DNA of 64,000 nt, taken from positions 97,278,001-97,342,000 of the forward strand of contig JAGIQG010000008.1 of NCBI GenBank assembly GCA_024679065.1, read 5' to 3'. Below are positions 1,248 to 64,000 of the stretch, piece after piece. The notes below the pieces were generated by a model. It was not told the DNA's origin. It was given only the letters and a program-made list of their open reading frames with translations, and did not search any database. The stretch's first letter is position 1. The number at the start of each line of letters is the position of its first letter. Source of the stretch: Sphyrna mokarran (taxonomy: Eukaryota). Made by a program: the position numbers and the translations under genes.

Positions 1248-1332
1248 AGGAAGACACAAGAGTGTTGAAAGCTCGCAATTTTACTATCAAATAAATCGGT
1301 TGGATTAAAAATTGGTGTTGCTAAATTCTTAC
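1248..1332 (+). mobile_element. 85-bp Penelope pLTR fragment inserted in a Deu-type SINE
   Basis: AGGAAGACACAAGAGTGTTGAAAGCTCGC..GCTAAATTCTTAC; removing it restores the host sequence cttgctgtac|acaaattg. Confidence 0.85.
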
Positions 1333-2222: not shown

Positions 2223-2801
2223 TTAACTTTAACTTTCTGCAAGGCTGGAATTGATCCGTACCTTTTCAACACATGCCCATATACACTGTTTGACATTTTA
2301 TACAAATTTACTATTTCCTATTCCAATATCTGCTTGGTTTGGTTGAAAGTGAATGTTGGAGATTCAGTGCAGTAGTGAGTACTCACTACTGTCGCATCTT
2401 CTTTTGAATGGATTGTTTAAGTGAGGCTTCATTCTTCTTAAGATGGATGTTAAAGAGACTGTTCTATTTCAAAATAGAAAAGTAGTATTCTGGCTGTTTT
2501 CTTTTTTTATTTATTCGTGGGACAGGAGCAATGCTGACTGGCCAGCATTTATTGCCTGTCCCTAATTACCCAAGGGCAGTTGAAAGTCAACCACATTGCT
2601 GTGGCTCTGGAGTCACATGTAGGCCAGTTTAGGTAAGGATGGCAGATTTCCTTCCCTAAAGGATGTTAGTAAACCAAATGGGTTTTACCATTCTTCGACC
2701 AATATTCTATATTGCCAGTAGTGGAGATATGTATATAATTTACATGTATATGTAAATTTATGTGTACCTGTGCTAATGATCTATTGATTTATGTTTTGCA
2801 G

Positions 2802-3113
2802 CTTTTCCTACTCTAAGTGCGATCATCTGTGAGCCAAGGAACCCTGTGATTGGAGAACAATTGACTTTGACCTGCAAAGTGCATTCATTTTACCCTAAAG
2901 ATATTAGTGTTCGATGGTTGAAAAATGAAGATGTTATTACGGATACAAAAACATCTGAAATAGTTAAAAATCCTGAAAATGTGTTATATGAACTTACCAG
3001 TTCATGCACATTTACTGCAACATTATCAGACCTAAGCAGTAAATATAGATGCCAGGTTCATCATGAGAGTCTAATGTATCCAAGGTTTGCGGAATATATT
3101 CCTGGAAGTTTAG
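2802..3113 (+). CDS. Ig C1-set domain exon A of a tandem multi-Ig-domain gene (5' exons lie outside the window or were not recognised)
   Basis: tttgcag acceptor at 2801 and G|gtatgt donor at 3114; 312 nt, phase 1-1; translates FPTLSAIICEP..LTLTCKVHSFYPKDISVRWLKNE..YRCQVHHESL, with the C1-set motifs L-x-C, FYP, W and Y-x-C-x-V-x-H. Confidence 0.93.
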
Positions 3114-4391
3114 GTATGTTTATTCTTAGTTTAAAAATATAAAAATGAGGATGTCTTATTTATAATCAAATTATCTTGCATTCTAATTTCACAAAATGGA
3201 TTTAGTAAAATTAGTGATGTTGTTCCTCACCTTTTACTTTTCATGCTTGAATGTAGTTGTCAGCTGTTTCTGTTGAGCAAACAGTACTACTGGAATTTAA
3301 AAGTGTTCTAATGGTACAGAATGGTTAAGTGCACCTCATGGTACCCCAAATAGGTTTGTAAGAGAATTTCACTACTACAAGTAATTATTCAGGGCAGATT
3401 TCAGCTGAGACACAGGTTATGCTGGTAGCTATCTTACTTTGGCTGTGGTAAAATCAGCTTACTGTCATCAAAATGAAATTCAGTTTTGAAGTTATCGGTG
3501 CGTTGATGAGAATTTTTTTATTCCTGGAGCGTTTATATACTTAAAACATATATGCTATACTTAAAATAATCCAGGTGACAAGGAGAGAAAAGGCACAAAA
3601 CCAGGTGCGAGAAATTGGGTTACATTCTTACTAGGCATATTAAAAGTAGATCTGGTATTGCTGAAATGGTATTGTTCGTTAAAATGTCTTATTTCTCAAA
3701 AACATGATTAGTGTTCAGGAAATTATGCTTGCCAGACATTAAGGCCCTGATGTACACCCACCCAAGGCTCGTAAGATCGCGTCCAAGGCCAACTGAGAAT
3801 GCCATTCTATGAGCCTCGCCCGCCTTGATTTCGAGGCGGATGTACCTGTAAAATTAGGACACAAGCCCTTGATTTTGTAAATTTTACTGCAGAAACAAAT
3901 ATTTTTCTACTGTGGAATGACAACTGAGCAGTACGATTGTTATATTGTCTTTTTTCCCAGCGTTTTAAATTATATATAACCCAATTACTCTGTTGCAGGT
4001 TCAGGTAATGTGCCAAAATCCTAATGATAATCTTACGAACATTCAGTCTATTCCCAGTTGAAGCTACAATTTTCCTGATCTGCATGATGTTCTAGTGGTA
4101 AAATATAGTTAATTTTTGGAAAGAAAAGCTGAATAACTCTTTCTGTGGAGTTTTGCAATGATAAACTAACCTGGAGAATAATATTAATTTAAAATTTTAA
4201 AACTCATTTGCATATGTGGGGCTATCTATATGTAGCACTGAATGTTAAGATCCTACTTGTTTGCTGCTTTCCAGTTAAAAGCCTTGAATAAATTCAACAT
4301 AGCTTGTTACACAATTTTTGGTATTTATGTTTGCAACAAATATTGGAACATTGTACTTCAGTTTTTCTTAATGTATTTCTTTTTATTTCAG

Positions 4392-4718
4392 TATCTTTTC
4401 CCAAAGTCTCTGAAATTACCTGCAATCCTACTATCCCTGAACTAGGGAGAGAATTGATTTTAACCTGTAAGATAAGTGAATTTTATCCAGAGGATATTCA
4501 AGTTGAATGGTTCAGAAATGAAGTGAGAATAAATGACGATGTAAAACACAGAGTAGTTACGGAAACATCACAGTGTGAAAATGGTCTGTACAACAAAATC
4601 TCCACAGTAACCATGCCTCCAACTTCTGATGATCATCAAGCTGAATATAGAATTGAAGTCTGTCATTCCAAATCTTCAACCAAACCTTTTAAGCAATGTT
4701 ACCAGCTATTTCTTAAAG
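4392..4718 (+). CDS. Ig C1-set domain exon B
   Basis: tttcag acceptor at 4391 and G|gtgagt donor at 4719; 327 nt, phase 1-1; LILTCKISEFYPEDIQVEWFRNE..EYRIEVCHSK. Confidence 0.93.
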
Positions 4719-6590
4719 GTGAGTTTTTTTTTTCCTCTTTGGTGAAGCAAGCCGTGATGGTAATTTTTCAAAGATCTTAATGAGGAAGCTATTGTGAATT
4801 GATGACAGGATTTGTCTCTTGCTCTGTGAGAGGTTAACAAAAATGTATTTGAAATACTAAAACATCACCTTAATTGTGCAATTATATCTTCCCTTCCATT
4901 TTATTTGTTCTGAATGAGTGGCTCAATTTGTCACTGTTTAATTAACATTATTGAAAAATATATGTACAAATATACAAAGTAAGAGCAGGAATAGGCCACT
5001 TGGCCCCTTGAGGCCGCTCCTAATTATACAAAATTTGCCAATGTTAGTATCATTTTCTGCTTCATCTTGGCCTGTGGAGCCTAAGCTAAATATGAATGAC
5101 AATGATAGGTCTGTTTACTATTGTTTAACTTTTGAATATTGTTACAATATTCTATGAAGTGACTCCTTTCTTTATCCCATTCCTGAGTTAGTGTCAGAAT
5201 TTGAATTTTAAAGGAAGCTGCTGTGGCCAATGCAATAATGTATTTAACTGTGTGTAGCTCAGTGGAAGAAATAAGCCAACCAGATTCTTCAAGTTTACAG
5301 AAGTTAGTTTTTTTTAATTGTTGAAGCTTAATCAGGTATAGGTGCAGAAAAAAATTAACAGAAATTTTAAAATGTGCCAATATGTTTAAATAGCCATGAT
5401 GCAAAAACAACATGCACCAAACATGCACAAAATGAGAAAAAATTCTAACTGCCAGATCTTAAAATAAAATTGGCCAAGTAGCAAGTCAGAAAAAAAAAAT
5501 TCATAAATCGTCCAGAAGGAGTTTTGTTTTAGAACGGAAGAATCCCATTCCGTGTTGGAGCAGTCACCTACAATCATGGCTGGTTGATGTAGAATTCTCC
5601 TTTGAGAACTCTTGGTTTGTAACAATAAAGTCTCAAATTATAAACAGCTCAGCTTTGATGAGAGAGGTTTCAGGAAAGAAATGGGCTAACTTTCTGGCTG
5701 TCTTACACCCAGCATATTTTTTTCACCCAAGAGCTGGAACATGTGACCCCTCTCTGAGAGCTGCATAGATTCATGGTCTCTACAAAAGCAGCTGTTATCC
5801 TCCACAAATTCAGCATAGTGGCTGCTGTAGCCAGTATCCTTTGCCTGAATTTTTCTTTCTGACGAATCATGTTATAGATTAATATTTTATATAACATATC
5901 TTCATAACAGTATGAAGAAAATCCTGACCATGTCCTCTGATGTTCTATGACACTATCATCACTGACTCCCCAACAACACCGTCAATACCCTGGAATACCA
6001 ATATCCTGAAACTCTATTGGATAAGCCACATAAATGTCTCAGCCACGAGAGATTTGACACTCTGTGGTGAGTGGCTCATCTGACTCACCAGAAACTTTCC
6101 ACTTCTACAAAGCTGTGATTGAATACTGTCTGTGTAGCTCTTTGGGCGCACTTCAGCAACAATGAAGAATCTTGCCATTAACTAATACAGGCTACTGAAT
6201 TGACACCGTCTAGTATAAATGTTCTCGTATTCCACTTGGGGTGTACTATGGGTGCAATGTGAACTCCGTACAGGAAACACTGCAACAAGTTGTTAAAACA
6301 TCTGAAGATGATCTTTGACCTTTAACACCTGGAAGGACATGATTTGGACGTCAATGCTGTTCCTTCTACACCTAGGCCAAATTCCTGAAATTCTATACCT
6401 AGCAATGCTACGGGAACCTGCATGCAGCAGTTTATCACCTCTTTTAAGGGTGAATGGAGTTGAGTAACAAATGGTAGCCTTGCCAGTATGACCCATCCAA
6501 AAAGTACTTAAAATAATATGTTGGCAGATTGGATGTGGCTTAGTTTGGTCTTTTGTATTAATTAAATATATTATTTCTCTCTGTTTATAG

Positions 6591-6905
6591 GCTCGCCAAA
6601 ATTTTCAAAGATCACGATGAAACCAGAGTGCCCTTTGTATGGGCAGCTTTTATCTGTGTCGACTTCAGTGTATGAAATTCCCCATAACAATGTTACAGTC
6701 GAATGGTATAAAGCATCTGAGCGCATCAAAGATGTGAAAAATTCAAATCTTGTGCGTAACGGTGAAAACTCATACAAAATAGACAGTCATCTGGAGTTTA
6801 CAGTGACTGCAGAAGACTTTGAAAGAGATTTATACTTTCTGTACAGAGACAATTCTAAAACTGATGTACCTGCATTCAAAAAACGTATTCAACTGCCACT
6901 TAAAG
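6591..6905 (+). CDS. Divergent Ig-like domain exon C (lacks both canonical Cys)
   Basis: tttatag acceptor at 6590 and G|gtaagt donor at 6906; 315 nt, phase 1-1, open frame; GSPKFSKITMKPECPLYGQLLSVS..VTVEWYK..YKIDSHLEFTVTAEDF..LPLK, same length and N-terminal P-x2-S-x-I pattern as exons A, B and D. Confidence 0.88.
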
Positions 6906-8008
6906 GTAAGTGTATGTCATGTGTTTATCTGTATGTATGTTTGAAAAAGCAGGTTTTGTTGATAATTCACATGAAAATAAATATATAATACAGCATTGAA
7001 GATGACCACCCTGTTTTGCTGAACAACAAAGGAATAGTTTTCATTATTCATCTCACATACAGTTGTGAATGAACCTTTTGTGGGTTTCTCAGGAGAGTTT
7101 TCCCAGCTTCATCTAAATTGTCCCAATTTAAATTAAGCTGATGCAATGTCTGTCTGCGTAGCTTTTTGGGTACACTTCAGCAACAATGAAGAATCTCACC
7201 ATTAACTAAAAACATGCTAATGGGAGAATTGCAGGGTAAATACATGGGGTTATGGCAATAGGGCCTGGGTGAGATTGTTGTCGGTGCAGGCTGGATGGGC
7301 TGAAAGGCCTCCTTCTGCACTTGTAGGGCTTCTATGATTCTATAATCGTAGATGGACTCTATTAGCAGGGAATCTGAGACATCTGTGAACAGGTCTAGTA
7401 TCCTGCAGATTTCAACAAGATTGAAGGATCTTCACTGATGTGTGCAGATATCAAAGCTAGAAGTAAAAACAAAAATTAAATATAATTCATATTAAAAGCA
7501 TACAAGAAACTTAAATAAACATATGGGGTCAATGGAAATATGAAAAATGTACAAAACAGAAATGCTGTATAAAATATCATTAAATTTCATATTTCTTCTG
7601 AAGCACTGAGACTCCACACTTGCCAAAATTAATTTATAGTGCAATCACTATAAGCTCCAGATGACTGTCTAAAGTTACGGCTAATGCTGATTGAGCAGGC
7701 CAACCTTTTCATTTATTTTTAAAATGAGAATAGTGGATAAATTAACTCAATGTTTAAGCCGTGATAGTGATTTCTGTGCAGATTCCATTGGCGAAGCCAA
7801 AGGTGGGACAGGATATCCCAGATAACAATTCTTTGTGCAAGTGAATTTTAATTATTTTATACCACTCTTTGAAACTTAAAATAAATGTTTATCTTGAATA
7901 GTTACTGAGAAAGCTTTTTAAATCCTTAAAACCATAAAAATAAATGTATTTTTAGGAGTCTGATTGCAGGTGATATTTTGCTATATTTTGTTTCTGCATA
8001 TTCCACAG

Positions 8009-8316
8009 CTGTGACTCCCAAAGTATCAGAAATCAAGTGTCATCCTGCTCATCCGAAAAATGGTGAAAGTGTAACTCTTACTTGCATGGTTGAACATTTT
8101 TGTCCAGTGGACATAGATATTCTTTGGAGCAAGGGATGGACGGAATACAAGGATAAGCAAAGTGTTGAAACACCCAGAATTGACAACATGGGACTTTATT
8201 CCACAGTTACGAAGTTGTCTATCACCGCAAATGAAGGTACAGCAGAATACAGCTGTGAAGTTCGGCACACGAAAACCAATGATATTATAGAGAAGATGTT
8301 CACTCTGTCTGTTTAG
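8009..8316 (+). CDS. Ig C1-set domain exon D, ending in the stop codon
   Basis: ccacag acceptor at 8008; VTLTCMVEHFCPVDIDILWSKG..YSCEVRH; TAG at 8314-8316 is immediately followed by gtatgt. Confidence 0.9.
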
Positions 8317-15507: not shown

Positions 15508-15606
15508 CTCAGTAAGAATTTAGCAACACCAATTTTAAATCCAACTGATTTATTTGATAGTAAATCTGCGAGCTTTCGACACTCTTGTGCCTTCGTCAGG
15601 CAAATG
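15508..15606 (-). mobile_element. Penelope pLTR fragment (may extend to about 15800)
   Basis: starts CTCAGTAAGAATTTAGCAACACC exactly like 61409 and is homologous through the ribozyme. Confidence 0.85.
15564..15605 (-). ncRNA. Minimal type-I hammerhead ribozyme
   Basis: reverse complement reads AUUUGC-CUGACGA-A-GGCAC-aaga-GUGUC-GAAA-GCU-C-GCAGAU: 6-bp stem I, 5-bp stem II. Confidence 0.8.
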
Positions 15607-17502
15607 AGCTGCCATATTCCATTAAATAGAGTTTAAATGTCCCAAAGCTACAAAGAGAGAAGGTAAGAGTGCAAAAAGGTAAAGGTGGTAAAGCTAAGTT
15701 GGGGTCGGGAGGAAATCGAGATTTTAGTGAATTGTGAGTTCCTGTCAAGTGCGAGTGAGTCCAAAGATCAGGGTGGAGTTTGAGGTCAATCATTTGATTA
15801 CCCAGGAGTTAGTCTCAGATTTATCTGTGTAATGTTTTCTGGGCAGGTATTTAAACATGTACATCAGACTGTAACTCGGACTTTGATACTTGGAGGGTAC
15901 TGAGGATCGGGGGAATTACCCATCTGAAGTTCAAACTTCCTAGGCAATTCCCAGAGCGGACATCCGAGGGGTCTCCTACTGCATCTTGGAGGGGAAGGGG
16001 TAAGACACGTATGATCTCTGACTATCCAGAGGCTGGAAGATTTGGGCTGGTATGCTTAGGGAATAAGTATAGAGACAGCGAAAGAGCAAAAAAAAGGAAA
16101 AGGAGATGGAGAGATTAAATAATTAAAGAGGTTGTGGTGAAAGGCTATAGACGCTGGCAATAGGGCAAATAAAGAAATAAAGTATTGAGAGAAGGTGAAA
16201 TGTGAAAACAGAGTTCATCACCAGCAATTGCTGCAAACTTTAAATAACACTCGAAAGGTGGAGCCGCCCTCTGTGTTTTCAGCATTTTCTGTTCTTATTT
16301 CAGAATTCCAGGATATTCCCGTCAGGGGCCGATGAAAAACCGTTCTGCATCCTAATAATGGGAGCTCTTAGGGGGGAGAGAGAGAAATGCTGCAGGATCA
16401 CTGAGTGGGTAAACTGGTATAGAGTGGGAGAATGGGACGGACAGAAGTGGCGCACAGAAAGTGCTGAGTGTTCAGATGTAAATGGGGGATGGGAATGGGG
16501 TTCAGAGGGAGGGGATCTGTGGTGTCATCCACTGAGTTCATGGGAACATACTGAACTGGTGATAGGAAGGGATGATGTGAGTTAGACGGGACAATGAAAG
16601 CCAATAGGGTGGGTTGGTGAGGGTTCAATAGTGACGGCTGAAGGGACACTGAGGGGATGCAGAAGGAGAAGTGGATTCTGGAGATCGGCAGGATGTAGGG
16701 AGGGCAGATCTACCATTATGGGATTGGGGGCCTTGGGGAGGGATGGATTGTGGACATTCAGCTGCACAAGCTGGAGGATGAGGGGATGGGTTAAAGGGTA
16801 ACCATGAAAACATGAGAAGGTTAAATGTTACACCTGGGGCCAGGGGTTAATGGTTATGGGATGAGAGTGTGGGTAACAGTGGGAGAAGTAAAAATATTTG
16901 ATTGAATGCCAAAGGTACAAATAGCCACTTGCAACTATCTAGAGCTTGGTGCCACAAGGGACGGGAAGAAGGGGAACCATTTTGGAAAAGGACCACACAA
17001 AATTCCCCAAGTTTGATTAATCCTCAAGATGGTTGAAGTACCACCTAGAGGACAAGGTATCCAGCCTCAAATGTTCGAGGGGAAGTAATAACAGGAATGC
17101 CATGAGCTCTCAACTTTTGTTTCATTTCACATTACTTGAGTCTAGTTTTAAGACCAATCCCATTTTGCAAAGAGTGTGAATAAAGGATCGAAGAAAAAGT
17201 TTTGCAATCATTAACCTTCATTCATTTTAGCTTCCATTGTTTAATAACTAAGCCGACGCTAACTTGAGACAGAGTTGAGCTCTCAATGATTTTCCAGTGC
17301 TTTGGGGCGTTGCGCAATAGTCACCCACCATAAACAACTTTCAAGAATGTACATCTATGTTTATTGCCTGTGGATCACTGAGCTGGAACTTCTATGCATC
17401 GCGCGTGCTTTTTCCTACGTTACAATCATGTATAAGGACAGCTTGTGCCATCAAATGAGGACTAATATTATCACGCGAACCCTCTGCACAGTAGGAAACC
17501 AT

Positions 17503-17649
17503 GATGTACAGATGCCGGCGTTGGATTGGGGTGGTAAGAACTCAGTAAGAATTTAGCAACACCAATTTATAATCCAACCGATTTATTTGATAGTAAAAAA
17601 GCGAGCTTTCGACTCCTGTGTCTTCCTCAGGCCTGCTAAATTCTTACTG
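17503..17649 (-). mobile_element. Penelope pLTR-only insertion with a short inverted end (same subfamily as 61409-63294)
   Basis: near-identical to the reverse complement of 63164-63292; inverted TGCTAAATTCTTACTG(AG) at 17634-17651; 13-bp duplication AGTAGGAAACCAT at 17490-17502 and 17650-17662. Confidence 0.92.
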
Positions 17650-18004
17650 AGTAGGAAACCATACAGGCCCATTGTAGCTATCGTACTGAAGGGTTTTTGA
17701 TGCACTGAGTAGCGGCGTCTTTGCCTCTGAGCTAGAAGCTGTGGCTTCGAGTGCCACCCAATTCTCGATGACCAAGGAAGGTACATTTTTAATGTGATCA
17801 ACAGGGTGAGTTATCAACCTCCAAAATTCTTCCAATATATGCCGCTAAGAGGTGGTAAGAGCGGGAGAGACTCCTGTCGGCCGTATTTTTGGAGAGATTT
17901 TCCTCAAACTCAAGCTGCTAGAGAACTATTTCCCGGGAGGTGGGGGGCGGAATCATTGCGGGAACAGATGAAAGTCTGCCTTGTTGTGCACCATTAGCTG
18001 ACGG

Positions 18005-34428: not shown

Positions 34429-34487
34429 TGGATCAGTTCAAATCAGAGTCTTTTCCTCACTCTGCGGCTCTGGATTAACAGCTTCAG

Positions 34488-34712
34488 ATGGAGACTGGAG
34501 ACTTGGCATTACAACCCAAAGTCGAGGAGGCAATGGGGCCCAATCAGCCTGAACCATCCAACAGCACGGTTGTGAACATGAAAACTCCGGGTCAACCCCA
34601 CCCCCGTTCACAGTCCCGACCTCCACACGACCACATCATCTGGTCCCTGTTCAATGCCTTCTACCTGAATGCCTGCTGTCTTGGATTCCTTGCACTTACC
34701 TTCTCAATCAGA
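34488..34712 (+). CDS. IFITM: Interferon-induced transmembrane (CD225/dispanin) protein, exon 1 (75 aa)
   Basis: PPHDHIIWSLFNAFYLNACCLGFLALTFSIR matches the IFITM CD225 motif (DHxxWSLFNxxxxNxCCLGFxAxxxSxK); phase-0 donor AGA|gtaagt at the conserved IFITM intron position. Family-level symbol only; paralog not assignable. Confidence 0.95.
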
Positions 34713-35029
34713 GTAAGTTGTCTTTCTGTTGTATTTCTGCCTGTAATAAATGGTCAATGGTTAAAATCCTGTGCTACAGGAAATGATATCTTATCAGGAT
34801 TTTCACAGTAACTACATTGCAGTATTAATGTATGCCTACTTGTGACATGAATGAGTAAAACAAAGGTTCCTTTTTTTTGCTCCTTTGCATCCTGTGATTT
34901 AAAGTGTCATTTAAAACTGGATCCTGGGTCAACGCAATCTGAGGCTAAAGCTATGGAATTGTCTAATGATATACGAATCTTTACAAGAAGTTGCAACACC
35001 ATGAACACATGGTGCTCTTGTTCTCAGGA

Positions 35030-37925: not shown

Positions 37926-38409
37926 ACAATTTAGTTGAGGCATACATTTTTGACTGACTCTCTAAAAACTCCAGAGAGTTGGACTTTTCTCTGAACACTG
38001 ATATGAAATAGGAGAACCAAAGTATTAGGCTATTGTACAGAAAGAAAAGGAGATCATGCCCAGAAATTTCACATTCAGTTTATTCATCCCTTTTTCCAAA
38101 GTCCTTGAAAAACTCTCTGACCTGTGATGCCATTCAGTGTTTGCCATCAGTCTCTGTTGTACCCATCAATGTGACAACATCTCCAAGAGCAGGAATGACT
38201 TCTATATTGTGGCTTTACAGTAAGTAAAATGTTAGACTGCTTCGCACAGGTGTAATTATAATCAGCATAAAGAGGCTCCTTTCTGCTTGTTCCTCTATGT
38301 TCATTGGAACTTTCAAATGACAGATGATGTTTTAACAATTTCCAAGTTACTACGGTTGTTTTGCAAATCGTCTCTCACAGCACATAATCTCTCCATTTCT
38401 CCTTTCCAG

Positions 38410-38568
38410 GCTCGGGATTACAAAGTTGCTAACAACATGCGGAAAGCAAGAAAATTGGCTTCTACTGCCAGGGGGTTGAATATCGCTGCCACCTTGTTCT
38501 CCCTGATCCTGCTAGCAGCTGGTATAGCCTATTACCTGTACGTGACTGTGGCCCATTTCACCCCCTGA
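38410..38568 (+). CDS. IFITM: IFITM exon 2 (52 aa + stop)
   Basis: pyrimidine tract and ccag acceptor at 38409; ARDYKVANNMRKARKLASTARGLNI followed by a hydrophobic TM helix and TGA. Confidence 0.95.
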   Translation, partial: ARDYKVANNMRKARKLASTARGLNIAATLFSLILLAAGIAYYLYVTVAHFTP

Positions 38569-41131
38569 CCAGAGACACTTGCCAAACGCAGAAAGGGAAA
38601 TGTTTCAAAATAGAAGTCACAGATTCTGCTGCAGAACAAACTTTCTGTGACTGAGTCAACACACAAAGCAAACTGCACCCACCGTGCAAATTTACGGTGA
38701 AAATATTTTTTATACAATGGTTTTATGTTCTGTCTGTAACTCTTTTACTCTGGAGTTTGTTTTTTACTTTCTGAATACTCAATTGCAAACTATTGTCAAT
38801 ATATTCACCTAGAATTGAAAATGAATCAAAATTTTAGCCCTTAGGAAATGATGATAAATCCTGAAACTGTAAAATTGCGGATTGGTTCTAGGAAACTGGA
38901 GACTGAAGAACAAAGATTAGGGTTGAAGATTGGCAATTGGGGTAAGGGTATTAGACATTGGAGAATAGGAACTTGGGACTGGGGACTTGGGACTGCTAGC
39001 TAGAGAAAGGAATGGCAGACTGGAGGCTGAGCACAGTGTACTGGAAATTGGAGAATAGGGCTTGAAGACTGGGGTTTGGGGACTGAGAGTGGAGATTGGG
39101 GAATGGAGACAAGGCTAGGGAGAGGAATCATGGCCCCGGTGCTTCTTTGTTTCCAGCTGTCTTATTCCTGGAACCCTCCTGAAATCCAAGCCCTCAAACA
39201 TGTGTGTTACTTTCTCCCCACTTCAAGATTCATAATTAACTCACCAAAGAATTACAGAAAAGTTCTAGTAAATGTTACATCCATTGTTGACATTGAGTTA
39301 CAAATAAATCTGATATGTGCAGCATAGATTATTAATATTAAGAGTAGCAATAATAAGCAATTAATATTAAAGGTATGTTAGTTTTTGTGTGCCCTACATG
39401 GATTCCACTGTAATAATTAAACACACCAGGGGGTACAAGTTTTATCTAAACGGCATTGTGCAATATTATTACTTTGACAGCAAAATATCCCATTAGTTAT
39501 TTATAACACTGCAAAAGACAACACTGATTGCTATGACTAGTTAACATGTTTTATACATTGCATCGTACATGGTGACGGTAATTCATCAACAAAACCAGGA
39601 ACTTTGAAATAAAAATAAAAAATGCTGGAAAAATCTACGGACGGCAACAAAATTAAAGTATCAGGTTGATCACCTTCTATTAGAAAAGGAGGAAAGATTA
39701 AATAATATTCATAACATTTTAATTTATGTATATTTGACTTGCTGCTTTGTAGAGAAAGGAAAGGCTGGCTCCATCTTGCAGTTGGCACTGTTACATTGTT
39801 AGAGAATTGTAGAAGGGAGTAGGGAGAGAGGTAGGAAAGGAAGGAGCAGAGGATATGGTCCCATTCACTCAATGCTGCCTGAACTCCTTCCCTCCCTTCA
39901 GTGAGGTGATTTGCGGTTTCTTTTGCTCACTAGCTTTGTGTGACTAATGGCGTGGGTTGCATTGATTAAAGAGGGAGAGAGGGGAGCCCAGCTATCTGCC
40001 TAGGATCACTCTCTCTGACTGGAAATATTCTGGGCAATGTTGATGGGGGCGATGTCATAGGGTATAGTGCGAGGGGTTAGAAGGGAGTGTTAGAGAAGAA
40101 AGGCCTCTATCAAATCCACTGCAAAGATCCATGTCATGCCAGCTAAAGCTTCCTGTACAAAATCTCACCAGTAGGCACGATAGGTTCATTTAAAAAAAAA
40201 TCAGCTTGGGCTAAATCTATGTTTATAAATTTTAACCTATTTATTTGGCATTAAATAGATGTGAACACAGGTAAAATAAATGTTCCTACAAAGCTTGCAA
40301 AAATGTTACAAATCCCTGAAGAAAGTTTCCTATTGTGAATGTCCTTCTTTGCACTACAGAGTGGGAAATAAATGCCTCATATACACGGGAAACTTAAGAA
40401 TTTAATACAGCATTGTGTAGATTAGCAATAGTGCTCAATTTCAATTACTCACTCTGAGCTTCATCTTGTCCTAATGTGGAAACCAGAAAAACAAGTGTCA
40501 GTTCCAGATTAAAATCCCATGAAAATCAATGTTCCCCTCCGTTCAAAATAAAGTCCCATTAGGATCAGCTTTTGTCCAAAAGATAAATGCCAGAATTTTA
40601 CACCCTCTACCCCACGGGCAGGTCTGAGGCAAGGGGAGTGTGAGATTACATGGAGGGGATTCCCTCTGGGTTTTCACTTGCCCCAATCTGAGAGTGATTT
40701 TATGCTGGGGCAGGCAGGGCTAGGGAAGAGAACCTCACCCTTGCCCAAATGAAACTCTCCAGTGGCCACTTAATTGCTATTTGAAAGCCTTTTCCTGCCC
40801 AGTCTCAGGTTTTAGGCTGGTGGATAGCTCAGTGGGGAGAGGCCGGATTGAGTTAGGTCCCCAGTGGGAATGGGTGGCGCACCTGCATCAGAAGTTCTTA
40901 TTTGACAGGGGGTGCCCTCTCCTTAAAACCCTCAAGACACTGGGTTACCCATTTTGCTCACTTCCAGGCCTTCCCTACCTTAGGACATTCTGAAAGTCAG
41001 ATATAGTTGCTTGCACCACAGCTCTTCCCCTTCTGAAGCAGTGGTTGTTGTTCAGGAGCTCAGGCATCTGCTCCTCCTCCAATACCATTTTCAGGTTGCT
41101 GATGGAGAGGAGGGCTGTTGCTGCTGGGGTG

Positions 41132-41331
41132 TTGTAGAGATGCCGGCGTTGGACTGGGGTAAACACAGTAGGAAGTCTGACAACACCAGGTTTAAGTCCA
41201 ACCGATTTATTTGATAGTAAACTCACAAGCTTTCGAGGTGTTTCGACCTCTTCGTCAGGTGAATCACTATCGTCAGGTGAGTTTACTATCAAATAAATCA
41301 GTTGGACATAAACCTGGTGTGTCAAACTTCC
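41132..41331 (-). mobile_element. Penelope pLTR-only insertion with inverted arms (distinct subfamily)
   Basis: tail + pLTR on the minus strand at 41132-41264; inverted copy at 41277-41331; 13-bp duplication TGCTGCTGGGGTG at 41119-41131 and 41332-41344. Confidence 0.9.
41221..41264 (-). ncRNA. Minimal type-I hammerhead ribozyme
   Basis: reverse complement reads AUUCAC-CUGACGA-A-GAGGU-cgaaac-ACCUC-GAAA-GCU-U-GUGAGU: full core, 6-bp stem I, 5-bp stem II, palindromic AGCU stem III. Confidence 0.8.
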
Positions 41332-43326
41332 TGCTGCTGGGGTGACCACGATGGGGCACATGCTGGGCGGTGAAGCTGTGGGCTGGATGGTATCCTACGA
41401 GCTTGCTGAACATGGACAATGGACATTCAACTCGCGACCAACGCCATCCATGTCCTTAGAACGGTTGTGCTCAGACCCAATATCATATGCCGTCTTGAGG
41501 GAGCTAACTGTGTGGGGGATCCCATCTGAGTGTATCCATACTCAAACGGAATTTCACAGCCTAGAACCCCCCTTTCCGGGTTGAACACCCCACAGTTTGA
41601 GCTGTCTTGAGGAAATGCTCTCTGTGCTCTTTGCCACTGTACAGAGAGATTTCCTGTATGGGTTGCTGCCGCACACCTTCCACTATTGTGTCCTTGCCCA
41701 TCGCCCAGATATGCCTTGGCGCGCCTTGTTGCCATCCGGTGCGGAGGTCCCCTGTGGAGGTCCCTTGACGAAGGGACCCTCCCACAATATATCAGGGACC
41801 TGGGGTGGAGGCTAGTACTAGGCAACACTAAACTGCACCAGATCACAGGCTCCAAGAAACTTGCCCTTTCTACAACCTTGTTAAGACAGTGGACCATGTC
41901 CATGTTCACTGTTTTAAGTTGCACTCTCTTTTTTGTTACATGAAAATCCTTTTATTCATTTTCTATTTGCACTTCAGTTCTACGCTCCTGATCAATGAAC
42001 ACCAGGTATGGAGGGGGGGAGGGGGGGTGCGGGAAAGGCAAAGGACCTTATCATGTACCTGCTCCTGGGCCTGGCCAGACTCACCATAAACAGGTCCAGA
42101 CAGAAGGTGAGCGAGGGGGTCAATTGACCCAATTGTCTGCCCCTCTATCTCAGCTACATTCACAGCGGGGTATCCCTGGAGAGGGAGCACACTAAGTCCA
42201 TGGGCACTATCGAGGCTTTCCATGCCTGCTGGGCCCCGCAGGGACTGGGGTGTATTATTGACTCTTTTAATCTCATTTTGATTTGATTTTTTAAGTTTCC
42301 TTTATGCTTTGGTTTATTTTGTTTGGGGCGGTTCTCCATCTTTTTAAGAAGTCGCCCCTTTTACTTTGTCCCTCCATTTATTTGATTTAGTTTATTTGGA
42401 TGGCCAAAAAGATGCCCTTCCTATCTTGGCACCTGAATTCCTGACTTGCCTCCCATTCCCTGGATCTTGGCTCAGGAATCTTCTTGCACCACGTGCTATT
42501 CACGAAGAGACTGAAAGACTGCCTGCCAATCTGATTGAATGGCAAGTTCTCCAAGGTGAAACTTTCCCTGACCCAACAGTGGACAACAAAGTTCCCTTAC
42601 CTTGAGTCTTGGGACTCTGAGCATGGGGTTTAAAAAAACATTCTGGACTAGGTATAGATTTTCCAGTCAGTTGAAAGTTCAGATAGTCGCCCTTGCAGAA
42701 GTACTTGTTCATAATTTTACCTCACTTCTCTTCTTGAGGTCAAGACTCAGTGTTGACAGGAAAACATGCAGCACGGTGACATTTGTAAGCACAGTACTCA
42801 CACTTGATGGTTTATGATTTATGTACGTATCAACATGCTGCAAATACAATCAGATCACTGGATTGAATAAATAATGACCGAGAAATAGTAACAATGAAGA
42901 GGAGGAGGAGAAACGCTGGATGAATGGAGATGTGCTCTCACTGTTTAGTCTGGTCAATGACCATTTACAAAGACTCGTCTTGGTCTAGCTAGCCCCAGGA
43001 CCTGGTGATCTGTACCTTGTATATAACCCCCTCTCTCAGGCCCTGTGCAATGCCTCTGGTATACACTGTGAGGGTGATATTTGTGAGCCATGGTCCTAGG
43101 CGAGACAGTCTCAAGAAATACACAAGATCATGAGTTTTTGTGTCAGTAGACAAAGAACAGCGGTTTACATTAGCTGCTGATATAAGAACCAGGCAGATAG
43201 AGATTTACAGCTTTCTCAATTGCAAGGATGTGAAGAAGGATTTTATTATGTAGCATGTGCTGAAGACTTATGAGTGCTGTGAAAGCGATTGCTATCAATG
43301 ATTTCAAAAAGAAATTGGATAGACTT

Positions 43327-47160: not shown

Positions 47161-49920
47161 TGGATAGAGCAGGGACAGGAATGATTGTTGCAGGTTCCGG
47201 GGTTCAAATGCTTCAGTCGGAGAAGAGAAGGAGGTAGAAGGGGGGGAGGAGTGCCATTATTAGTCAAAGACTGTATCACAGTGACAGAAAGGAAGTTTGA
47301 TGAGGACTTGTCTGTTGAGGTAGTATGGGCTGAGATTAGAAACAGGAAAGGAGAGGTCACCCTGTTGGGAGTCTTTTATAGACCTCCTAAAAGTTCTAGA
47401 GAGGTAGAGGAAAGGATTGCCAAGTCAATTCTGGTCAGGAGTGAAAGTAATAGGGTAATTGTTATGGGGGACTTTAACTTTACTAATATTGATTGGAATA
47501 GCTATAGCTCTAGCTCGTTAGAGGGGTCAGTTTTTGTACAAAGTGTGCAGGAAGGTTTTTTGACTCAGTATGTAGATAGGCCAACTAGAGGTGAGGCTAC
47601 ATTGGATTTGGTGCTGGGCAATGAGCCAGACCAGATGTTAGGCTTGGAAGTTGGTGAACATTTTGGTGATAGTGACTACAATTCAGTTACGTTCACCTTA
47701 GTGATGGATAGGGATAGACATGAAGCTGGGGGCAGTAGTTATAGCTGGGGGAAGGGTAATTATGAGGCCATAAGGAGGGAATTAGGGTGCATAGGTTGGA
47801 CTAGGAAACTACAGGGAATGGGAACATCCGAAATGTGGAGCTTATTCAAGGAGCAGCTACTGCGAGTCCTTGATAAGTATATCCCTGACAGGCAAGGAGG
47901 AAATGGTCGAGTAAGGGAACCATGGTGTACTAAAAAAGTTAATTCACTGGTTAAAAGGAAAAAGGAGGCTTATGCCAGGATGAGGCTTGAAGGCTCAGTT
48001 AGTGCAATGGATAGCTATAGATTAGCCAGGAAGGAGCTAAAGAGTGAGTTGAGGAGAGCTAAAAGGGGACAGGAGAAGACTTTGGCTGATAAGATCAAGG
48101 AGAATCCTAAAGCTTTCTTTAGATATGTTAAGAATAGAAGATTGGTTAGGGCAAGATTAGGGCCAGTCAGAGACAGCAGGGGGAAGTTGTGCGTGGAGCC
48201 TGAAGAGATTGGAGAGGCACTGAACAAATATTTCTCTTCGGTATTCACGCAGGGAGATGTAAATGTAGTTGTGGAGAACACTGGGATACAGGATTGCAAA
48301 CTGGAAAGTATTGAAGTAGATAAGGAGGATGTGCTAGATATTCTTGAGGGTTTGAAGTTAGATAAGTTCCCTGGGCCGGATGGGATTTACCCTAGGATTC
48401 TCTGGGAGGTGAGAGAGGCGATTGCAGAGCCTCTGGCTCTGATCTTCAGGTCGTCGTTGGTTACGGGTTTAGTGCCGGAAGACTGGAGGATAGCGAATGT
48501 GGTCCCATTGTTCAAGAAGGGAAGAGAGACTTTCTGGGGAATTATAGGCCGGTAAGTCTTACTTCTGTTGTGGGCAAAGTATTGGAGAGAATTATTAGGG
48601 ATAGGATTTATAGTTATTTAGAGAGAAAAGAATTGATTGGGGATAGTCAGCATGGTTTTGTGAAGGGTAGGTCGTGCCTTACTAACCTTATTGAGTTTTT
48701 TGAAAAAGTGACCAAAGAGCTGGATGGGGGTAAGGCAGTTGATGTGGTATATATGGACTTTAGTAAGGCGTTCAATAAGGTGCCCATGGAAGGCTTCTGC
48801 AGAAAATGCAGATGTATGGGATTGAGGGTGATTTAGCTAACTGGATTAGGAATTGGCTAGCTGATAGAAGACAGAGGGTGGTGGTTGATGGAAATTATTC
48901 ATCATGGAGTTCGGTTACAAGTGGTGTACCTCAGGGATCTGTTTTGGGGCCCCTGCTGTTTGTAATTTGTATAAATGATCTGGATGAGGGTATTGAAGGA
49001 TGGATTAGTAAATTTGCGGATGACACCAAAGTCGGAGGAGTGGTAGATAGTGAAGGGGGGTGTTATAGTTTGCAGAGAGACTTGGACAAGTTGCAGAGCT
49101 GGGCCGAGAGGTGGGAAATGGAGTTTAATGTGGAAAAGTGTGAGGTAATTCACTTTGGCAGGAATAACAAATGTGTAGAGTATAGGGCTAATGGTAGGAC
49201 TCTTAATAGTGTTGATGAACAGAGGGATCTTGGTGTATGTGTGCATAGATCCCTGAAAGTTGGCAATCAAGTCGATAAGGTTGTTAAGAAGGCATACGGA
49301 GTCTTAGCTTTTATTGGTAGGGGGATTGAATTTCGGAGCCGCAACGTCATGTTGCAACTGTACAAAACTCTAGTGCGGCCGCACTTGGAGTATTGTGTGC
49401 AGTTCTGGTCCCCACATTATAAGAAAGATGTGGAGGCATTGGAGAGGGTACAGAGGAGGTTTACCATGATGTTGCCTGGTATGGAAGGCAGGTCTTATGA
49501 AGAGAGGCTGAGGGATTTGAGGTTGTTTTCGTTAGAAAGAAGGCGGCTAAGAGGAGACCTTATTGAAACATATAAGATGATTAGAGGTTTAGATAGGGTG
49601 GACAGTGATAGCCTTTTTCCTAGGATGGAGAAAGCTAGCACGAGGGGACATAGCTTTAAATTAAGGGGTGGTGGTTATAGGACGGATGTCAGAGGTAGGT
49701 TCTTTACCCAGAGGGTGGTAAGGGTATGGAATGCCCTGCCTGCGTCAGTTGTAGATGCGCCAAGTTTGGTGGCGTTTAAGAGGTTAGTAGATAAGTTTAT
49801 GGACGAAAAGGGAATGGTTTAGGTTAGAAGGTCATTGCTTTTTCCTAATTGGTCGGCACAACATCGAAGGCCGAAGGGCCTTTCTGCGCTGTAATGTTCT
49901 ATGTTCTATGTTCTATGTTC
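47161..49920 (+). mobile_element. CR1-clade (HER1-like) LINE, 5'-truncated ORF2 (APE endonuclease + RT), young but disabled
   Basis: GVFYRPP, MGDFN, LDLVL, GPDG, VYMDFSKAF, GVPQGSVLGP and KFADD motifs; TGA at 47182 and frameshifts near 48525 and 48785; (TTCTATG)n tail; TSD CACACTA at 47154-47160 and 49920-49926. Confidence 0.97.
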
Positions 49921-54149: not shown

Positions 54150-55010
54150 CTGTTCCCCATGATCCTCTATACATCCCAAACTAACCCCACTACTCTGCAT
54201 GTTCTTCCTATAACCATAGATCAACCTCAAACTAACCTCACTGCCTTGGATGTTCTTCCTATCATCCTGCATCAAGCCCAAACTAACCCCACTGCCCTGC
54301 ACATTTCTCCTATAATTCTACATCAACCCCAAATTAACCCCACTGCCCTTCATGCTCTCCCCAGAACTCTGTATCAATCCCAAACTAACCTCATTGCCCT
54401 GCATGCTCTTCCTATAATGTTTCATCAACCCCAAACTAAACCCAGTGTTCTGCATACGTTCCCCATAACTCTATATCAATTCCAAACTAACCCCACTGCC
54501 TTGCATGCTCTCCCCAAGACTCTCTATCAACCCCAGATTTACCCCATTGCCCAACATGCTCTTCCTATAACCCTGCATTAACCCTAAACTAAACCCACTG
54601 CCCTGCACACTTTCCCCATAACACTATATCAAGTCCAAATTAACCCCACTGCCCTGCATGCTCTACCCAGAACTCTTTTTCAAGCCCTAACTAAGCCCAC
54701 TGCTCTGCATGTTCTTGTTATAATGATTCATCAACCCCAAACTAACCCCACTGCCCTGCATACTTTCTCCATAGATGTACATCAATTTCAAATATACTCC
54801 ACTGCCCTGCATGCTCCTCCTATAACTCTGCATCAACCCCAAACTAGCCCCACTGCTAAATACATGTTCTCTGTAACTCTACATCAATCCCAAAATAAAC
54901 CCACTGTCCTCCTCTCTTCCCCTGTTGCTATATGAATCCAAACTAATCTCAGTGCCCCATTCTCTTCCCATGATTCCAAGTTAATCGCACTGTCCCAAAT
55001 TCTTCCCATA
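54150..55010. repeat. 57-bp minisatellite, about 15 degenerate units
   Basis: unit approximately ATCAACCCCAAACTAACCCCACTGCCCTGCATGCTCTCCCCATAACTCTGC; produces the 19-aa-period pseudo-ORF at 54159-54581. Confidence 0.92.
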
Positions 55011-59400: not shown

Positions 59401-61408
59401 TCGGAATCCTACCGTGCAGAAGGAATCCATTCAGAGCATCAAGTCTGTCCTGACCACAATCCCACCCAGGCCGCTGTCCTTGTCACCCACATGCTTACCT
59501 TGCTAATCCCCCTGACACTAGGGTCAATTTAGCAAGGCCAATCAGCCTAACCTGTACATCTTTGGACTGTGGGAGGAAACTGGAACCCCCAGAGGAAACT
59601 CACCCATAAAATACAATATGTAAAGCTGTACTACAGTGTAACATGTTTACAAGAATGATGATGCAGCAGTGCTTTTAGATTGATCATGCATTATATAGTT
59701 GAAGGAACTAGTCAGTGCTGTTAGCAGCTGAAATCCTGGCTATTTGCACCAATCCAAGTTTGCCACTTGATGGAGTCAAAGCATCACTGCAAGTTCATCA
59801 ACATGCGCTAAGTGTGAAAGGAAATAAGGAACAACTGGTTCAGCCATCCACTTTCCCTTTCTTTCTCTCTCTTTCTCCCTCCCTCTTTCCTCCACTTTCT
59901 CTCACTCTCCCTTTAAATCTTTGTCTCGTTTTCCCTCTACCGCCCTCTTTGCTTCCTCTTATTTGCGCTCCTTCTCTCTGTGTCTCACTCACTTTCTCTT
60001 TTCAAACTCTCTGTCTCCCTCTTGTTCTCTTGTACCCTTTTCCCTTTCTCTGTCCTCTCCTGTTCCTCCCCCCATCTCTCTGTTAGTCTGCAAAAGGAAC
60101 CTAATTTGTATGTTGCCGAGGCTAGTGGATTCTGGGAGCAGTATTTCTCCTGCAGTGTGTGAGGAAGGGGGAACTGCAGCCTTTAAACGTATTTAGTTGA
60201 AGTACAGAATTTTCCATTGTGTACAAAGAGAATAAACATTGAGACAGAGTGGCTGGAGCCAGATTGACTGAAGCAATTATCTCCATGCTTTGTTGATTAT
60301 GTGGGGGCCCACTTACACCAACCTCAACTTCTGACCACAACAATGTGGATCCATCCAGCTCCTAATGTTCAGGCTTCTCATTTTTACTGATCACAATTAG
60401 ATTTTTTATTTAGGGTTCTTGTGCAATTACTTTATTTTGAAACTGAAATTCTGAATTGAATAGCCAAGACTTGGATTCCAGTGAGAACAGAATTTCAGTC
60501 TGATTGTTGACATGTTTAGTACCAGCTTAATTAACTATATCCTGTAATTAGAAATAAGTAACTGCTGAGATTCCAGTCTCAGATACCCATTTGTCTAGAT
60601 TTCCAGTACGGATGCGCAAAGCCAAATTTCCCACTTTAGACAATTATATGAATGAACAACATGTAAATAGACCCTTTGGCCCAACTTATCTATGCTGACC
60701 AAGTTTCCTAAATTGAATTAGTCCCATTTGCCTGCTTTTGGTCCACATCCCTCTAAACATTTCCAATCCATGAACCCATTCAAATGTCTTTTAAATGTTG
60801 TAACTATACCCACATCTACCATCTCCTCTGACAGCTCATTCCATATACGCACCACCTTCTGTGCGAAAAAGTTGCCCCTTAGATCCTTTAAATATTTCCC
60901 CTCTCACTTATGCCCTTAGACTCCCCTACCCTGAGGAAAAGACCTATTTTCCTTATCTGGGCCCCTCATGATTTAATTAACCTCTTATATTTATCCAAAT
61001 GTTTTTTAAATGCAGCTGCCTCAATCACTTTCTTTGGCAGCTCATTCCGTTCATGCACCACTCACTGTGTGAAGAAGTTGCCCCTTGGGTCCCTTTTAAA
61101 TCTTTCCCTCCCCCTTAAACGTATGTTCTCTGCACTGTACGGTTTCTATGATTCTGAGATTCTATGATTCCGGGACATCAACACTTTGTCCATGGTCCCA
61201 ACCTTCTTTAGAATGGGGAAGGGGATTGAGGGGATAATACAAATCGTGAATTTAACGAGATCCCATGTTCTAAACAAAGTCCTCTGAGCATGCTTTCCTC
61301 AGTGAAGTTGAAACCCTGCATTTGAATGTGAAATACCGGACTAAAGCAAGTACAACATCTTCAGCCAGAGTGCTGCGAGAATAATCCAACCTGGCCACTT
61401 CTGGAGAT

Positions 61409-63294
61409 CTCAGTAAGAATTTAGCAACACCAATTTATAATCCAACCGATTTATTTGATAGTAAAAAAGCAAGCTTTCGACTCTGTGTCTTCCTCAGGCA
61501 AATGTAGTGTTCTGGTCTGCAATAGCACACATCAGCACAGACAGTCAGAGATTGCTGATTAGAATGCGAATCCTTACATCTAACCTGCTATTCAAGTGTT
61601 AAAGTGGCTAACAATGTGTGTGAAGGGAATCCTGAGCATTGGTTAGAGAATTGTGTATTTTCTCCAGACAGCACAGTAAGTGAGGTTTTTTGCTAACCCA
61701 GGCAAGTTACGGGGGTTACAGATAGTGTGTCATGAAGCCAAGATCCCTGTTAAGACCGTCCTCATGTGTGCGGAGCTTGGCTATCAGTCTCTGCTCAGCG
61801 ACTCTGCGCTGTCGTGTATCACGAAAGCCCCCTTGAAGAACATTTACCCGCAGGTCGGAGGCCGAATGCCCATGACTGCTGAAGTGTTCGCCCACAGGAA
61901 GGGAACTGTTTTGCCTGGTGATTGTTGAGCGATGCTCATTCATCCGCTGTCGTAGTGTCTGCATGGTCTCCCCAATATACCATGCTTCAGGACATCCTTT
62001 CTTGCAACGTATTAGGTAGACAACGTTGGCTGAGTTGCAAGTGTATGTACCGTGTACCTGGTACATACCAGAATGCTCTACTTCTCCAGCTTCCACCCTA
62101 GACACTTTAAAGAAGCCATTCCCTATGGACAAGCCCTCCGTATACACAGAATTTGCTCAGATGAGGAGGATCGTGATAGACACCTCCAGACGCTGAAGGA
62201 TGCCCTCGTGAGAACAGGATATGGCGCTCGACTCATCGATCGACAGTTCCGACGTGCCACAATGATAAACCGCACTGACCTCCTCAGAAGACGAACACGG
62301 GACACGGTGGACAGAGTACCCTTTGTTGTCCAGTACTTCCCCGGAGCGGAGAAGCTACGACATCTTCTCCGGAGTCTTCAACATATCATTGATGACGATG
62401 AACATCTCGCTAGGGCCATCCCCACCCCCCACTTCTTGCTTTCAGACAACCGCACAACCTCAAACAGATCATTGTTCGCAGCAAACTACCCAACCTTCAG
62501 GAGAACAGTGACCACAATACCACACAACCCTGCCACAGCAACCTCTGCAAGACATGCCGGATCATAGACATGGACGACATCATCAAACGTGAGGATACCA
62601 TTCACCAGGTACACGTTACATACACTTGCAACTCGGCCAACATTGTCTACCTAATACGTTTCAAGAAAGGATGTCCCGAAGCATGATATATTGGGGAGAC
62701 CATGCAGACACTACGACAGCGGATGAATGAGCATCGCTCAGCAATCACCAGGCAAAACAGTTCCCTTCCTGTGGGCGAACACTTCAGCAGTCATGGGCAT
62801 TCGGCCTCTGACCTGGGGGTAAATGTTCTTCAAGGGGGCTTTCGTGATGCACGACAGCGCAGAGTCGCTGAGCAGAGACTGATAGCCAAGCTCCGCACAC
62901 ATGAGGACGGTCTTAACAGGGATCTTGGCTTCATGACACACTATCTGTAACCCCCGTAACTTGCCTGGGTTAGCAAAAAACCTCACTTACTGTGCTGTCT
63001 GGAGAAAATACACAATTCTCCAACAATGCTCAGGATTCCCTTCACACACATTGTTTGCCACTTTAACACTTGAATAGCAGGTTAGATGTAAGGATTCGCA
63101 TTCTAATCAGCAATCTGACTGTCTGTGCTGATGTGTGCTATTGCAGACCAGAACACTGCATTTGCCTGAGGAAGACACAGAGTCGAAAGCTCGCTTTTTT
63201 ACTATCAAATAAATCGGTTGGATTATAAATTGGTGTTGCTAAATTCTTACTGAGTTCTTACCACCCCAATCCAACGCCGGCATCTGTACATCAT
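61409..63294 (+). mobile_element. Penelope-like retroelement (Neptune type), 5'-truncated, with an inverted 3' arm
   Basis: 62073-62950 encodes the RT C-terminus (FSSFHP..AIPYGQALRIHRICS), the PCHSNLCKTC linker and a GIY-YIG endonuclease (VYLI..YIGET..LRQRMNEH..GLN), with a frameshift near 62425 and TGA at 62684; 61409-62062 is the reverse complement of 62604-63254; duplication CACTTCTGGAGATCTC at 61396-61411 and 63295-63310. Confidence 0.95.
63160..63194 (+). ncRNA. Minimal type-I hammerhead-ribozyme motif in the Penelope pLTR (mirror copy at 61469-61503, minus strand)
   Basis: gc-CUGAGGA-A-GAC-acaga-GUC-GAAA-GCU-C-gc; stem I is only 2 bp in this subfamily. Confidence 0.65.
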
Positions 63295-63654
63295 CACTTC
63301 TGGAGATCTCCAGCATCACAAATACCAGCCTGCAGCCGAATAAATTCGCCTGACATGATATCAAGATTTCCAAAACCCAACAGATGCTTCGTTTTCTCCT
63401 TCTGTCACCCCTCAATGAAATATCAGCACTGTCAAGCTGGATTTTCTTTCTCAAATCCGTGATGACCATGTTTGAAATTAAGGGAGGCAACATGAGGCCT
63501 AAAATCAATAGTAAAATGGATAAGAGAGTGAGAGGCAGGAATATAAAGACCTGGGAACAGAGGCAATGCACTATTCAGAGAGACTGTACTTGTACAAAAC
63601 AGCATGAGTCAATAGAGGGCATCAGAAGCTAAAATGAAATGTTCCCACAACGCG

Positions 63655-64000
63655 TGCAGAATGTTTACGAATGTTTGAGCGTTTCCGTATGTTCCAAAGT
63701 GTTTCTGATCGTCTCTGACTGTCTTTGAGTGTTTTAAATGATTCTGAATGTTTCTCAGTGTTTTGAGTGTTTCTGAAAGTCTCTGAATGTTTTTGAATGT
63801 TTCTGAGTGTTTCTTACTATTTCTCATCTTTCACAGTGTTTCTTAGTGTGTTTCAATGTTCCTAAGTGTTTCTCGGTGTTTCTCAGTATTTCTTGATGTT
63901 TTTGAGAGTTTCTTGGCATTTCTCAGTATTTCTCAGTGTTTCCCAATGTTTCTGAGTGTATCTCAGTGTTTGTGTTTCTCAGTGTTTCTGAGTATTTCTC
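63655..64000. repeat. 10-bp minisatellite (TGTTTCTSAG)n, runs off the window end
   Basis: repeated tgtttctcag / tgtttctgag. Confidence 0.9.

Follow-up and report, generated by a model that had tools for sequence, protein, structure and literature searches.

How does a retrotransposon come to be deposited as two opposed copies of itself, only one of which carries a tail? The question is raised by a 64,000-nucleotide stretch of the Sphyrna mokarran genome (the window, to which coordinates below refer), in which three insertions share such a layout. Each consists, as a sequence-only reading of this DNA had proposed, of a tailed arm and a tail-less arm of opposite orientation, enclosed by target-site duplications (TSDs) of 13, 13 and 16 bp that are exact at 17490/17650, 41119/41332 and 61396/63295 and exceed in length every other repeat around their inserts. 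Numbering the A of the element's ORF ATG as +1, the first insertion comprises a left 13-bp TSD copy (17490..17502) whose last 3 nt match the element's ATG, a tailed arm on the minus strand (17503..17632; element -129..0) containing a minimal hammerhead core and the tail, an inverted tail-less arm on the plus strand (17634..17649; element -55..-40) and the right TSD copy (17650..17662); this inverted arm is just 16-19 nt long (17634-17652), the higher figure counting the 3-nt overlap with the TSD. The second, an older insertion of a subfamily designated B, has 13-bp TSD copies at 41119..41131 and 41332..41344, a tailed arm at 41132..41264 (minus strand) and a short filler followed by an inverted tail-less arm at 41265..41331 (plus strand). 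The third lies between 16-bp repeats (61396..61411 and 63295..63310) and has arms of about 650 and 1220 nt that carry a GIY-YIG domain: an inverted tail-less arm extending to -691 and containing GIY-YIG coding sequence (61412..62062, minus strand), then about 10 nt of filler and a tailed arm (-1211..+2; 62063..63294, plus strand) with the 3' end of the ORF, the 3' UTR, the hammerhead core and the tail. The few nucleotides of overlap between TSDs and element ends that had been claimed were recovered at all three: the 17490 insertion has 3+3 nt, that at 61396 has 3+0 exact nt, and that at 41119 has about 2 nt on the tail side with an imperfect 4/5 at the short end. The target motif described below suggests that 14 nt of the 16-bp repeat at 61396 stem from the stagger and that the other 2 nt are shared with the element.

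Two further copies in the window have a single tail-less arm: one at 1248..1332 (plus strand), for which no TSD was found, and one of about 99 nt at 15508..15606 (minus strand), with a 7-bp repeat at 15503/15605. The latter had been thought to use the same boundary as the 17503 and 61409 insertions; it does have the same end (..TTCTTACTGAG), but TTCTTACTGAG lies in the middle of a range of end positions that has no defined boundary, and the copy has neither a tail nor an inverted arm, the DNA behind it being unique and no part of the repeated element body. Empty sites were recovered for two of the insertions: record 18 of run X4 joins 17489 to 17650, and record 17 of X4 together with record 23 of X5 (the two runs being one sample) joins 41119 to 41333, each with a single copy of the 13-mer. 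Hence, the duplications at 17490 and 41119 were made by the insertions. The source of X4 is probably a related species, given that the flanks of contig 18 are about 90% identical. In runs X1, X3, X4 and X5 hundreds of contigs per run stop at the tail/ATG position (window 41133), and the tail end is therefore common to copies in other species. Elsewhere the window holds, on the plus strand, four ORF stretches with immunoglobulin C1-set domains (2780-8316), which probably represent constant exons from an antigen-receptor gene, a pair of exons bearing halves of CD225 (IFITM-like) domains (34479-34811 and 38236-38568) and a LINE remnant with APE endonuclease and reverse transcriptase (RT) (47185-49822), as well as a 51-bp tandem array of 14 copies (54175-54910) and a 10-bp satellite (63700-64000).

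Judged by its sequence, the element is a young Neptune-type Penelope-like retrotransposon (PLE). Its 33-nt pLTR motif has 3,134 exact matches in the genome (G000, 2.77 Gb), the motif of the 41132 subfamily (B) 2,058, the exact young tail 762 and a looser tail pattern 15,688. One locus, L121, retains a unit of about 3.0 kb with a single ORF that encodes an RT (an RVT_1 match, with YIDD), a CX4CxxC linker and, at the C-terminal end, a GIY-YIG region, as in EN+ PLEs, with a frameshift close to the C-terminus; the window copy at 61409 matches PF01541 (GIY-YIG). Full-length homologs of about 880 aa begin at the same Met as the element ORF, and the closest named homologs are shark proteins with 80-90% identity. 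Two cysteines lie between GIY and YIG (VVYLIRCKKGCPEAWYIG) and His residues follow further on in the continuing frame, forming the CCHH motif that, in the passages of PMC8557442 compared, defines EN+ PLEs by the two cysteines at this position. Those passages also give a CX2-5CxxC motif in the RT-EN linker as shared by Neptune and Nematis and absent from Penelope and Poseidon; it is present here (CHSNLCKTC in L121, and also in P0004, P0005 and P0010), and by these motif definitions the element is of Neptune or Nematis type and not Poseidon. The EN+ PLE layout is likewise evident in the pLTRs, the inverted 5'-truncated copy, the optional tail and the TSD, and in L087, L121, L188 and L236 the unit of about 3.0 kb continues into an upstream pLTR as a partial tandem. 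A minimal hammerhead core (CUGANGA-A-stem II-GAAAGCU), recognized by eye at about -129..-100 of the pLTR, represents a candidate ribozyme whose stem II varies in sequence among subfamilies while retaining its pairing (by eye, in a comparison of 14 rows, with 4 left out as the wrong stretch), a pattern agreeing with that in the consulted part of PMC4209133. An Rfam search gave no hammerhead match and a PDB sequence search no match, and a consensus fold for a candidate conserved stem-loop over -77..-12 had 1 of 15 pairs compensated, with z-scores of -0.3 to -1.5.

The generality of the layout was assessed in two samples. The discovery set was drawn by position, disregarding the tail, with the motif required in one of the arms; the 100 motif matches listed first correspond to 73 events, or 72 without L110, which ran off its locus. 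The validation set comprised 60 new tail-anchored places, reduced to 58 by removal of L224 (unresolved) and L233 (which ran off). End statistics also take in two window copies and tail-selected loci; 8 of L001-L030 were excluded for running off their loci, and L137 and L140 for failing the motif filter. L002 is a window copy, L139 the reference, and L031-L060 duplicate L061 onward. The 72 position-sampled events divide into 39 with a tail and a short (tail-less) end, 3 with two short ends, none with two tails, 23 with a short end only and 7 with a tail only, tail-only counts being upper bounds since arms under about 15 nt may be missed (the short arm of L223 is 8 nt). Two-armed copies are head-to-head in all cases, and 39 of the 42 in this sample have mixed ends, where 50% would be expected if the ends were independent (p=2e-9). 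The 58 validation copies gave 37 with tail and short end, 21 without a short 3' end and again none with two tails; nor were close head-to-head tail pairs found among the first 100 listed exact tails or among the listed looser-pattern tails. A single 3' end is present in 30 of the 72 copies, 13 of these 30 being without a TSD of at least 7 bp; three single-end events (L076, L102 and L122) contain an internal inverted piece. The mode of TSD length is 13, with 12-14 bp in 42/58 tail+short copies and in 30/37 in validation. Subfamily B displays the same layout, about 21 of 30 copies being two-armed (by eye) and 16 of the 17 that have a TSD falling at 11-16 bp; L166, once a candidate double-tailed member of this subfamily, resolved to tail+short.

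The two kinds of end differ in their precision. In 48 copies with TSDs of 11-16 bp (L120 dropped) the first TSD base lies at +1.6 (SD 2.1) at the tail end and at a mean of -37.6 (SD 4.0, range -47..-30) at the tail-less end, and the validation values (n=35) are +1.7 and -37.4 (SD 4.4), respectively. The tail stops at the start codon, and the tail-less end falls in a range of about 17 nt with no boundary. An SD of 2 at the one against an SD of 4 over about 17 nt at the other indicates that only the tail end is fixed, and the fixed "pLTR boundary" which the sequence-only reading had assigned to the tail-less arm is ruled out by this scatter. The position of the short end correlates neither with TSD length nor with tail position (rho -0.06 and 0.11, n=48). 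In subfamilies with a spacer shorter by 4-6 nt the short ends average -35.2 (n=20) vs -37.5 (n=83), between the values predicted by the two anchorings, of which the upstream-anchored one was computed with a 1-nt error.

With the insert removed, the site reads CTG-NN-[13 bp TSD, 65% AT]-NN-CAG, a palindrome that, like the coupling of the arms discussed below, the earlier reading had missed. Among 76 half-sites from 38 distinct 13-bp sites, 36 have CAG at +3 relative to the TSD edge (19/38 on one side and 17/38 on the other; random flanks, 2%), 15 have it at +2 and at most 5 at any other position, the full CAG at +3 being a feature of only about half of the half-sites. A matrix trained on 22 events peaked at a stagger of 12-14 both in 57 events held out and in 50 of the validation set; CAG was present in 14 of 30 validation half-sites, and older subfamilies have a weaker motif (CAG 6/18, CA 12/18, one pair with identical targets included). 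The empty site of the 17490 insertion is an exact CTG-N17-CAG, its half-sites being CTG at 17484..17486 and CAG at 17664..17666 (plus strand). Single-arm copies (n=28) are informative in that a half-site is recognized by score at the primed edge alone (mean 2.0, against -1.4 at the opposite edge; p=0.005), the non-primed edge being displaced, typically by 3-5 nt. Because the primed edge sits on a half-site in these copies, tail ends and short ends both behave as primed ends. Certain host-repeat sites were used more than once, one by 4 of 129 insertions of differing structure and another by 3. Such repeated insertion at the same host-repeat site was seen for L061, L089, L122 and L017 (also L239 and L242), for L087, L005 and L029, and for L245 and L250, which may be one duplicated event; the shared sites received different subfamilies in both orientations and are natural hot spots.

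Base matches between target and element RNA are present at both ends. The exact overlap averages 1.5 nt at the tail end and 1.9 nt at the short end, vs 0.7 nt (n=48) in simulations without pairing that used random flanks or permuted real sites, and the observed means were matched by 0 of 2000 simulations. Matches to the RNA are raised over the first 5-6 nt. In validation the overlaps were 2.0 (tail) and 2.2 (short) (n=35; the null is from the discovery set alone). About a quarter of the discovery ends have an overlap of zero, and pairing would therefore aid priming and not be required for it.

These fixed genomic scars (layout, TSD length, empty sites, target motif, end positions, overhang/RNA base matches, shared variants and correlated arm lengths, all seen in the sequence) can be reconciled in one mechanism. 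Two-ended priming after a symmetric cut appears highly probable. That paired endonucleases cut within CTG-N17-CAG to leave 13-nt 3' overhangs, both of which serve as primers for reverse transcription of one RNA from starts about 39 nt apart, is the version we favor and regard as reasonably probable. Each GIY-YIG domain of a dimer would nick 2 nt 5' of CAG on its own strand, leaving 13-nt 3' overhangs on both strands, both of which would prime, the last 5-6 nt of each pairing loosely with the RNA. One start would be fixed at the ATG (+2) and the other would choose its register within about -47..-30. Both reverse transcriptases would then travel 5'-ward along a shared RNA template, with the leading cDNA displaced by the enzyme that trails, such that the arms would often stop together, mostly near -150..-120. 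Host repair would join the two cDNA 3' ends head-to-head and fill in; where a single end had primed, the other overhang would be trimmed and joined, giving one arm and a shorter or absent TSD. The sequence-only reading had already proposed that priming takes place twice, on the opposite strands of a staggered cut, and the scars, namely the TSD mode of 13, the RNA matches at both ends, the symmetric target and the frequency of longer tail-less arms (see below), argue for this. Its internal start at the tail was well placed; the start that it put at the pLTR end is better replaced by a second internal one, in the range of about 17 nt lying about 39 nt upstream.

Whether one RNA or two are copied is addressed by the coupling of the arms. 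Arms diverge by 1.4% within an insertion vs 4.1% between insertions (n=72), and a variant at position -97 is shared by the arms in 17 cases and discordant in 2. The 5' extents of paired arms are correlated (rho 0.66, n=95; 0.75 in 28 long pairs), and a split of the 95 pairs at -152 places 28 both beyond, 58 both within and 7+2 mixed (p=2.5e-15). The shared variants could also stem from two RNAs of one locus or from later gene conversion. Twin priming on two RNA molecules, one per subunit, in an asymmetric complex that imposes the different starts would account equally well for the symmetric cut, the two primed ends and the non-nested arms; sibling transcripts from one source locus would share variants, and arm lengths are discordant in 9 of the 95 pairs. 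Yet it offers no simple reason why the arms both stop within -152 in 58 pairs and both pass it in 28, or for the absence of two-tail copies, and we consider it unlikely.

The relative lengths of the arms bear on a further possibility, self-priming, in which the primed strand folds back and copies itself to give the inverted arm, as described in the relevant part of PMC3846280 (with an antisense template in that case). Such a process predicts that the arms share variants and have correlated lengths; in addition, the arms stop at most 10 nt apart in 24/58 copies and 11/37 in validation, and small palindromes and fillers are present where the arms join. A fold-back copy cannot exceed the tailed cDNA, yet in 18/58 and 16/37 (validation), a total of 34/95, the tail-less arm outreaches the tailed one by over 10 nt, and by as much as 2 kb (in one example, -2198 vs -94 for the tailed arm). 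Simple fold-back is therefore excluded for the non-nested copies, and lone tail-less arms with an intact primed edge also speak against it; as the general explanation it is quite improbable, while it may lie behind a subset of copies. The inner junction of L072 (1700-2000) holds a series of short inverted copies of -220..-199 that alternate, in the manner of repeated template switching; L014, L019, L076, L139, L188 and L236 have ORF-internal inverted pieces whose starts are not at pLTR sites and which resemble L1-style twin-priming inversions. There are also 4 suggestive cases of a tailed arm ending where the short arm starts. The remaining proposal, that the tail difference is made when EN cuts an intermediate DNA where pLTR and ORF meet ("EN-mediated resolution" in the consulted portion of PMC8557442), can draw on a CTG half-site of the element at -41..-39 that would place a nick near -37, where short ends lie on average, and on the Poseidon protein that nicks its own junction DNA according to the part of PMC11167929 available, but it is very hard to credit when short ends spread over about 17 nt against a precision of about 1 nt for target nicks, no matching half-site predicts the tail end and primer bases match the RNA at both ends.

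Priming of both overhangs on one RNA leaves the matter of where the arms stop. In the position-sampled set 55 of 114 arm 5' ends fall within -151..-119 with a sharp upstream edge, and an RNA 5' end or a strong stop near -150..-120 is likely. Of six measurable full-length copies, four reach upstream of -150, and hence -150 is not the sole RNA start and would explain the edge only in part. Hot spots of 5' ends at -148 and -142 each adjoin an AG and might be transcription starts or tandem splice acceptors. PLEs keep introns, and Penelope of D. virilis has a spliceosomal one in its pLTR; here no spliced junction was found in the fetched loci, a genome-wide probe with one candidate acceptor gave 0 matches, and splicing appears an unlikely source of the -150 edge for the one donor/acceptor family probed. 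Hammerhead cleavage was rejected as the source of the 5' ends, which cluster further upstream than the cut that is predicted at about -100.

A comparable process is said to operate in L1, where the twin priming attributed to Ostertag and Kazazian has the second overhang prime on the same RNA and produce an inversion within one TSD; the second priming reportedly takes place a long way upstream, at sites that vary, and the inversion, found in a minority of copies, affects sequence that does not overlap. In the shark element, in contrast, about 39 nt separate the two starts, both arms are copies of the same sequence and this is the commonest outcome (42/72). Among PLEs, the element class and the layout of inverted arm, one-sided tail and TSD are already known. 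An inverted pLTR with one-sided tail and TSD is described for Pen2a_Av of Adineta (PMC3846280), a general scheme for it is given in PMC8557442 and a 34-bp repeat in D. virilis is noted in PMC2377424; in the portions of these sources compared, EN+ PLEs share with the shark element head-to-head arms, a 30-40 nt extension at one end, a TSD, 5' truncation and partial tandems. The published examples there are single cases with TSDs of 8-10 bp, whereas the shark element has a TSD mode of 13 and a tail ending at the ATG; the inversion is ascribed to self-priming or EN resolution, and the passages contain no target consensus, end statistics or arm coupling, PMC8557442 calling the origin of inverted and tailed copies undefined. 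The nearest biochemical parallel is the Anolis Poseidon protein PAc, which, in the parts of Frangieh et al. 2024 (PMC11167929) consulted, nicks and extends both strands in vitro, is predicted to be a dimer, takes uncleaved hammerhead RNA as template and has two internal RNA start sites bounding the tail. The cutting of both strands inferred here and the two internal starts bounding the tail are common to both systems. The starts of PAc lie 111-118 nt inside the ORF; counting against the version favored here, in another clade, they are reported as non-homologous to the cut DNA and showed no difference between strands, and the preference is for AT-rich ATT sites, whereas the shark element is Neptune-type with a start at the ATG, a CTG-N17-CAG target and loose primer-RNA pairing; that source, as far as it was available, leaves inverted arms and TSD unexplained and steps after first-strand priming unvalidated. 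Further PLE literature, likewise consulted in part, includes PMC8969392, PMC12602865 and bioRxiv 2026.07.22.740005. In the literature searched there was no report of a palindromic PLE target, a staggered cut or twin priming; Arkhipova 2006, Evgen'ev 1997/2005, Pyatkov 2004 and Repbase could carry target notes.

What is new, then, is the symmetric target, the fixed stagger and the coupled arms. Extended to Neptune-type PLEs in general, the proposal would be one of double target-primed reverse transcription, with a homodimer reading CTG-N17-CAG like a dimeric restriction enzyme, leaving 13-nt 3' overhangs and placing two RT sites about 39 nt apart on one RNA, where they would move together; we see the chances of this wider claim as evenly poised. 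The target palindrome, the fixed stagger and the evidence for arms from one RNA make PLE integration testable with the existing in vitro assay, for which this would, if true, be the first sequence-defined target. One geometry would then account for the tail, the inverted arm, the TSD length and the palindromic stubs of about 140 nt. The RTs of PLEs are the sister group of telomerase, and writing from both cut ends at a short motif would bear on the manner in which at least 15,000 tailed copies accumulated in shark genomes.
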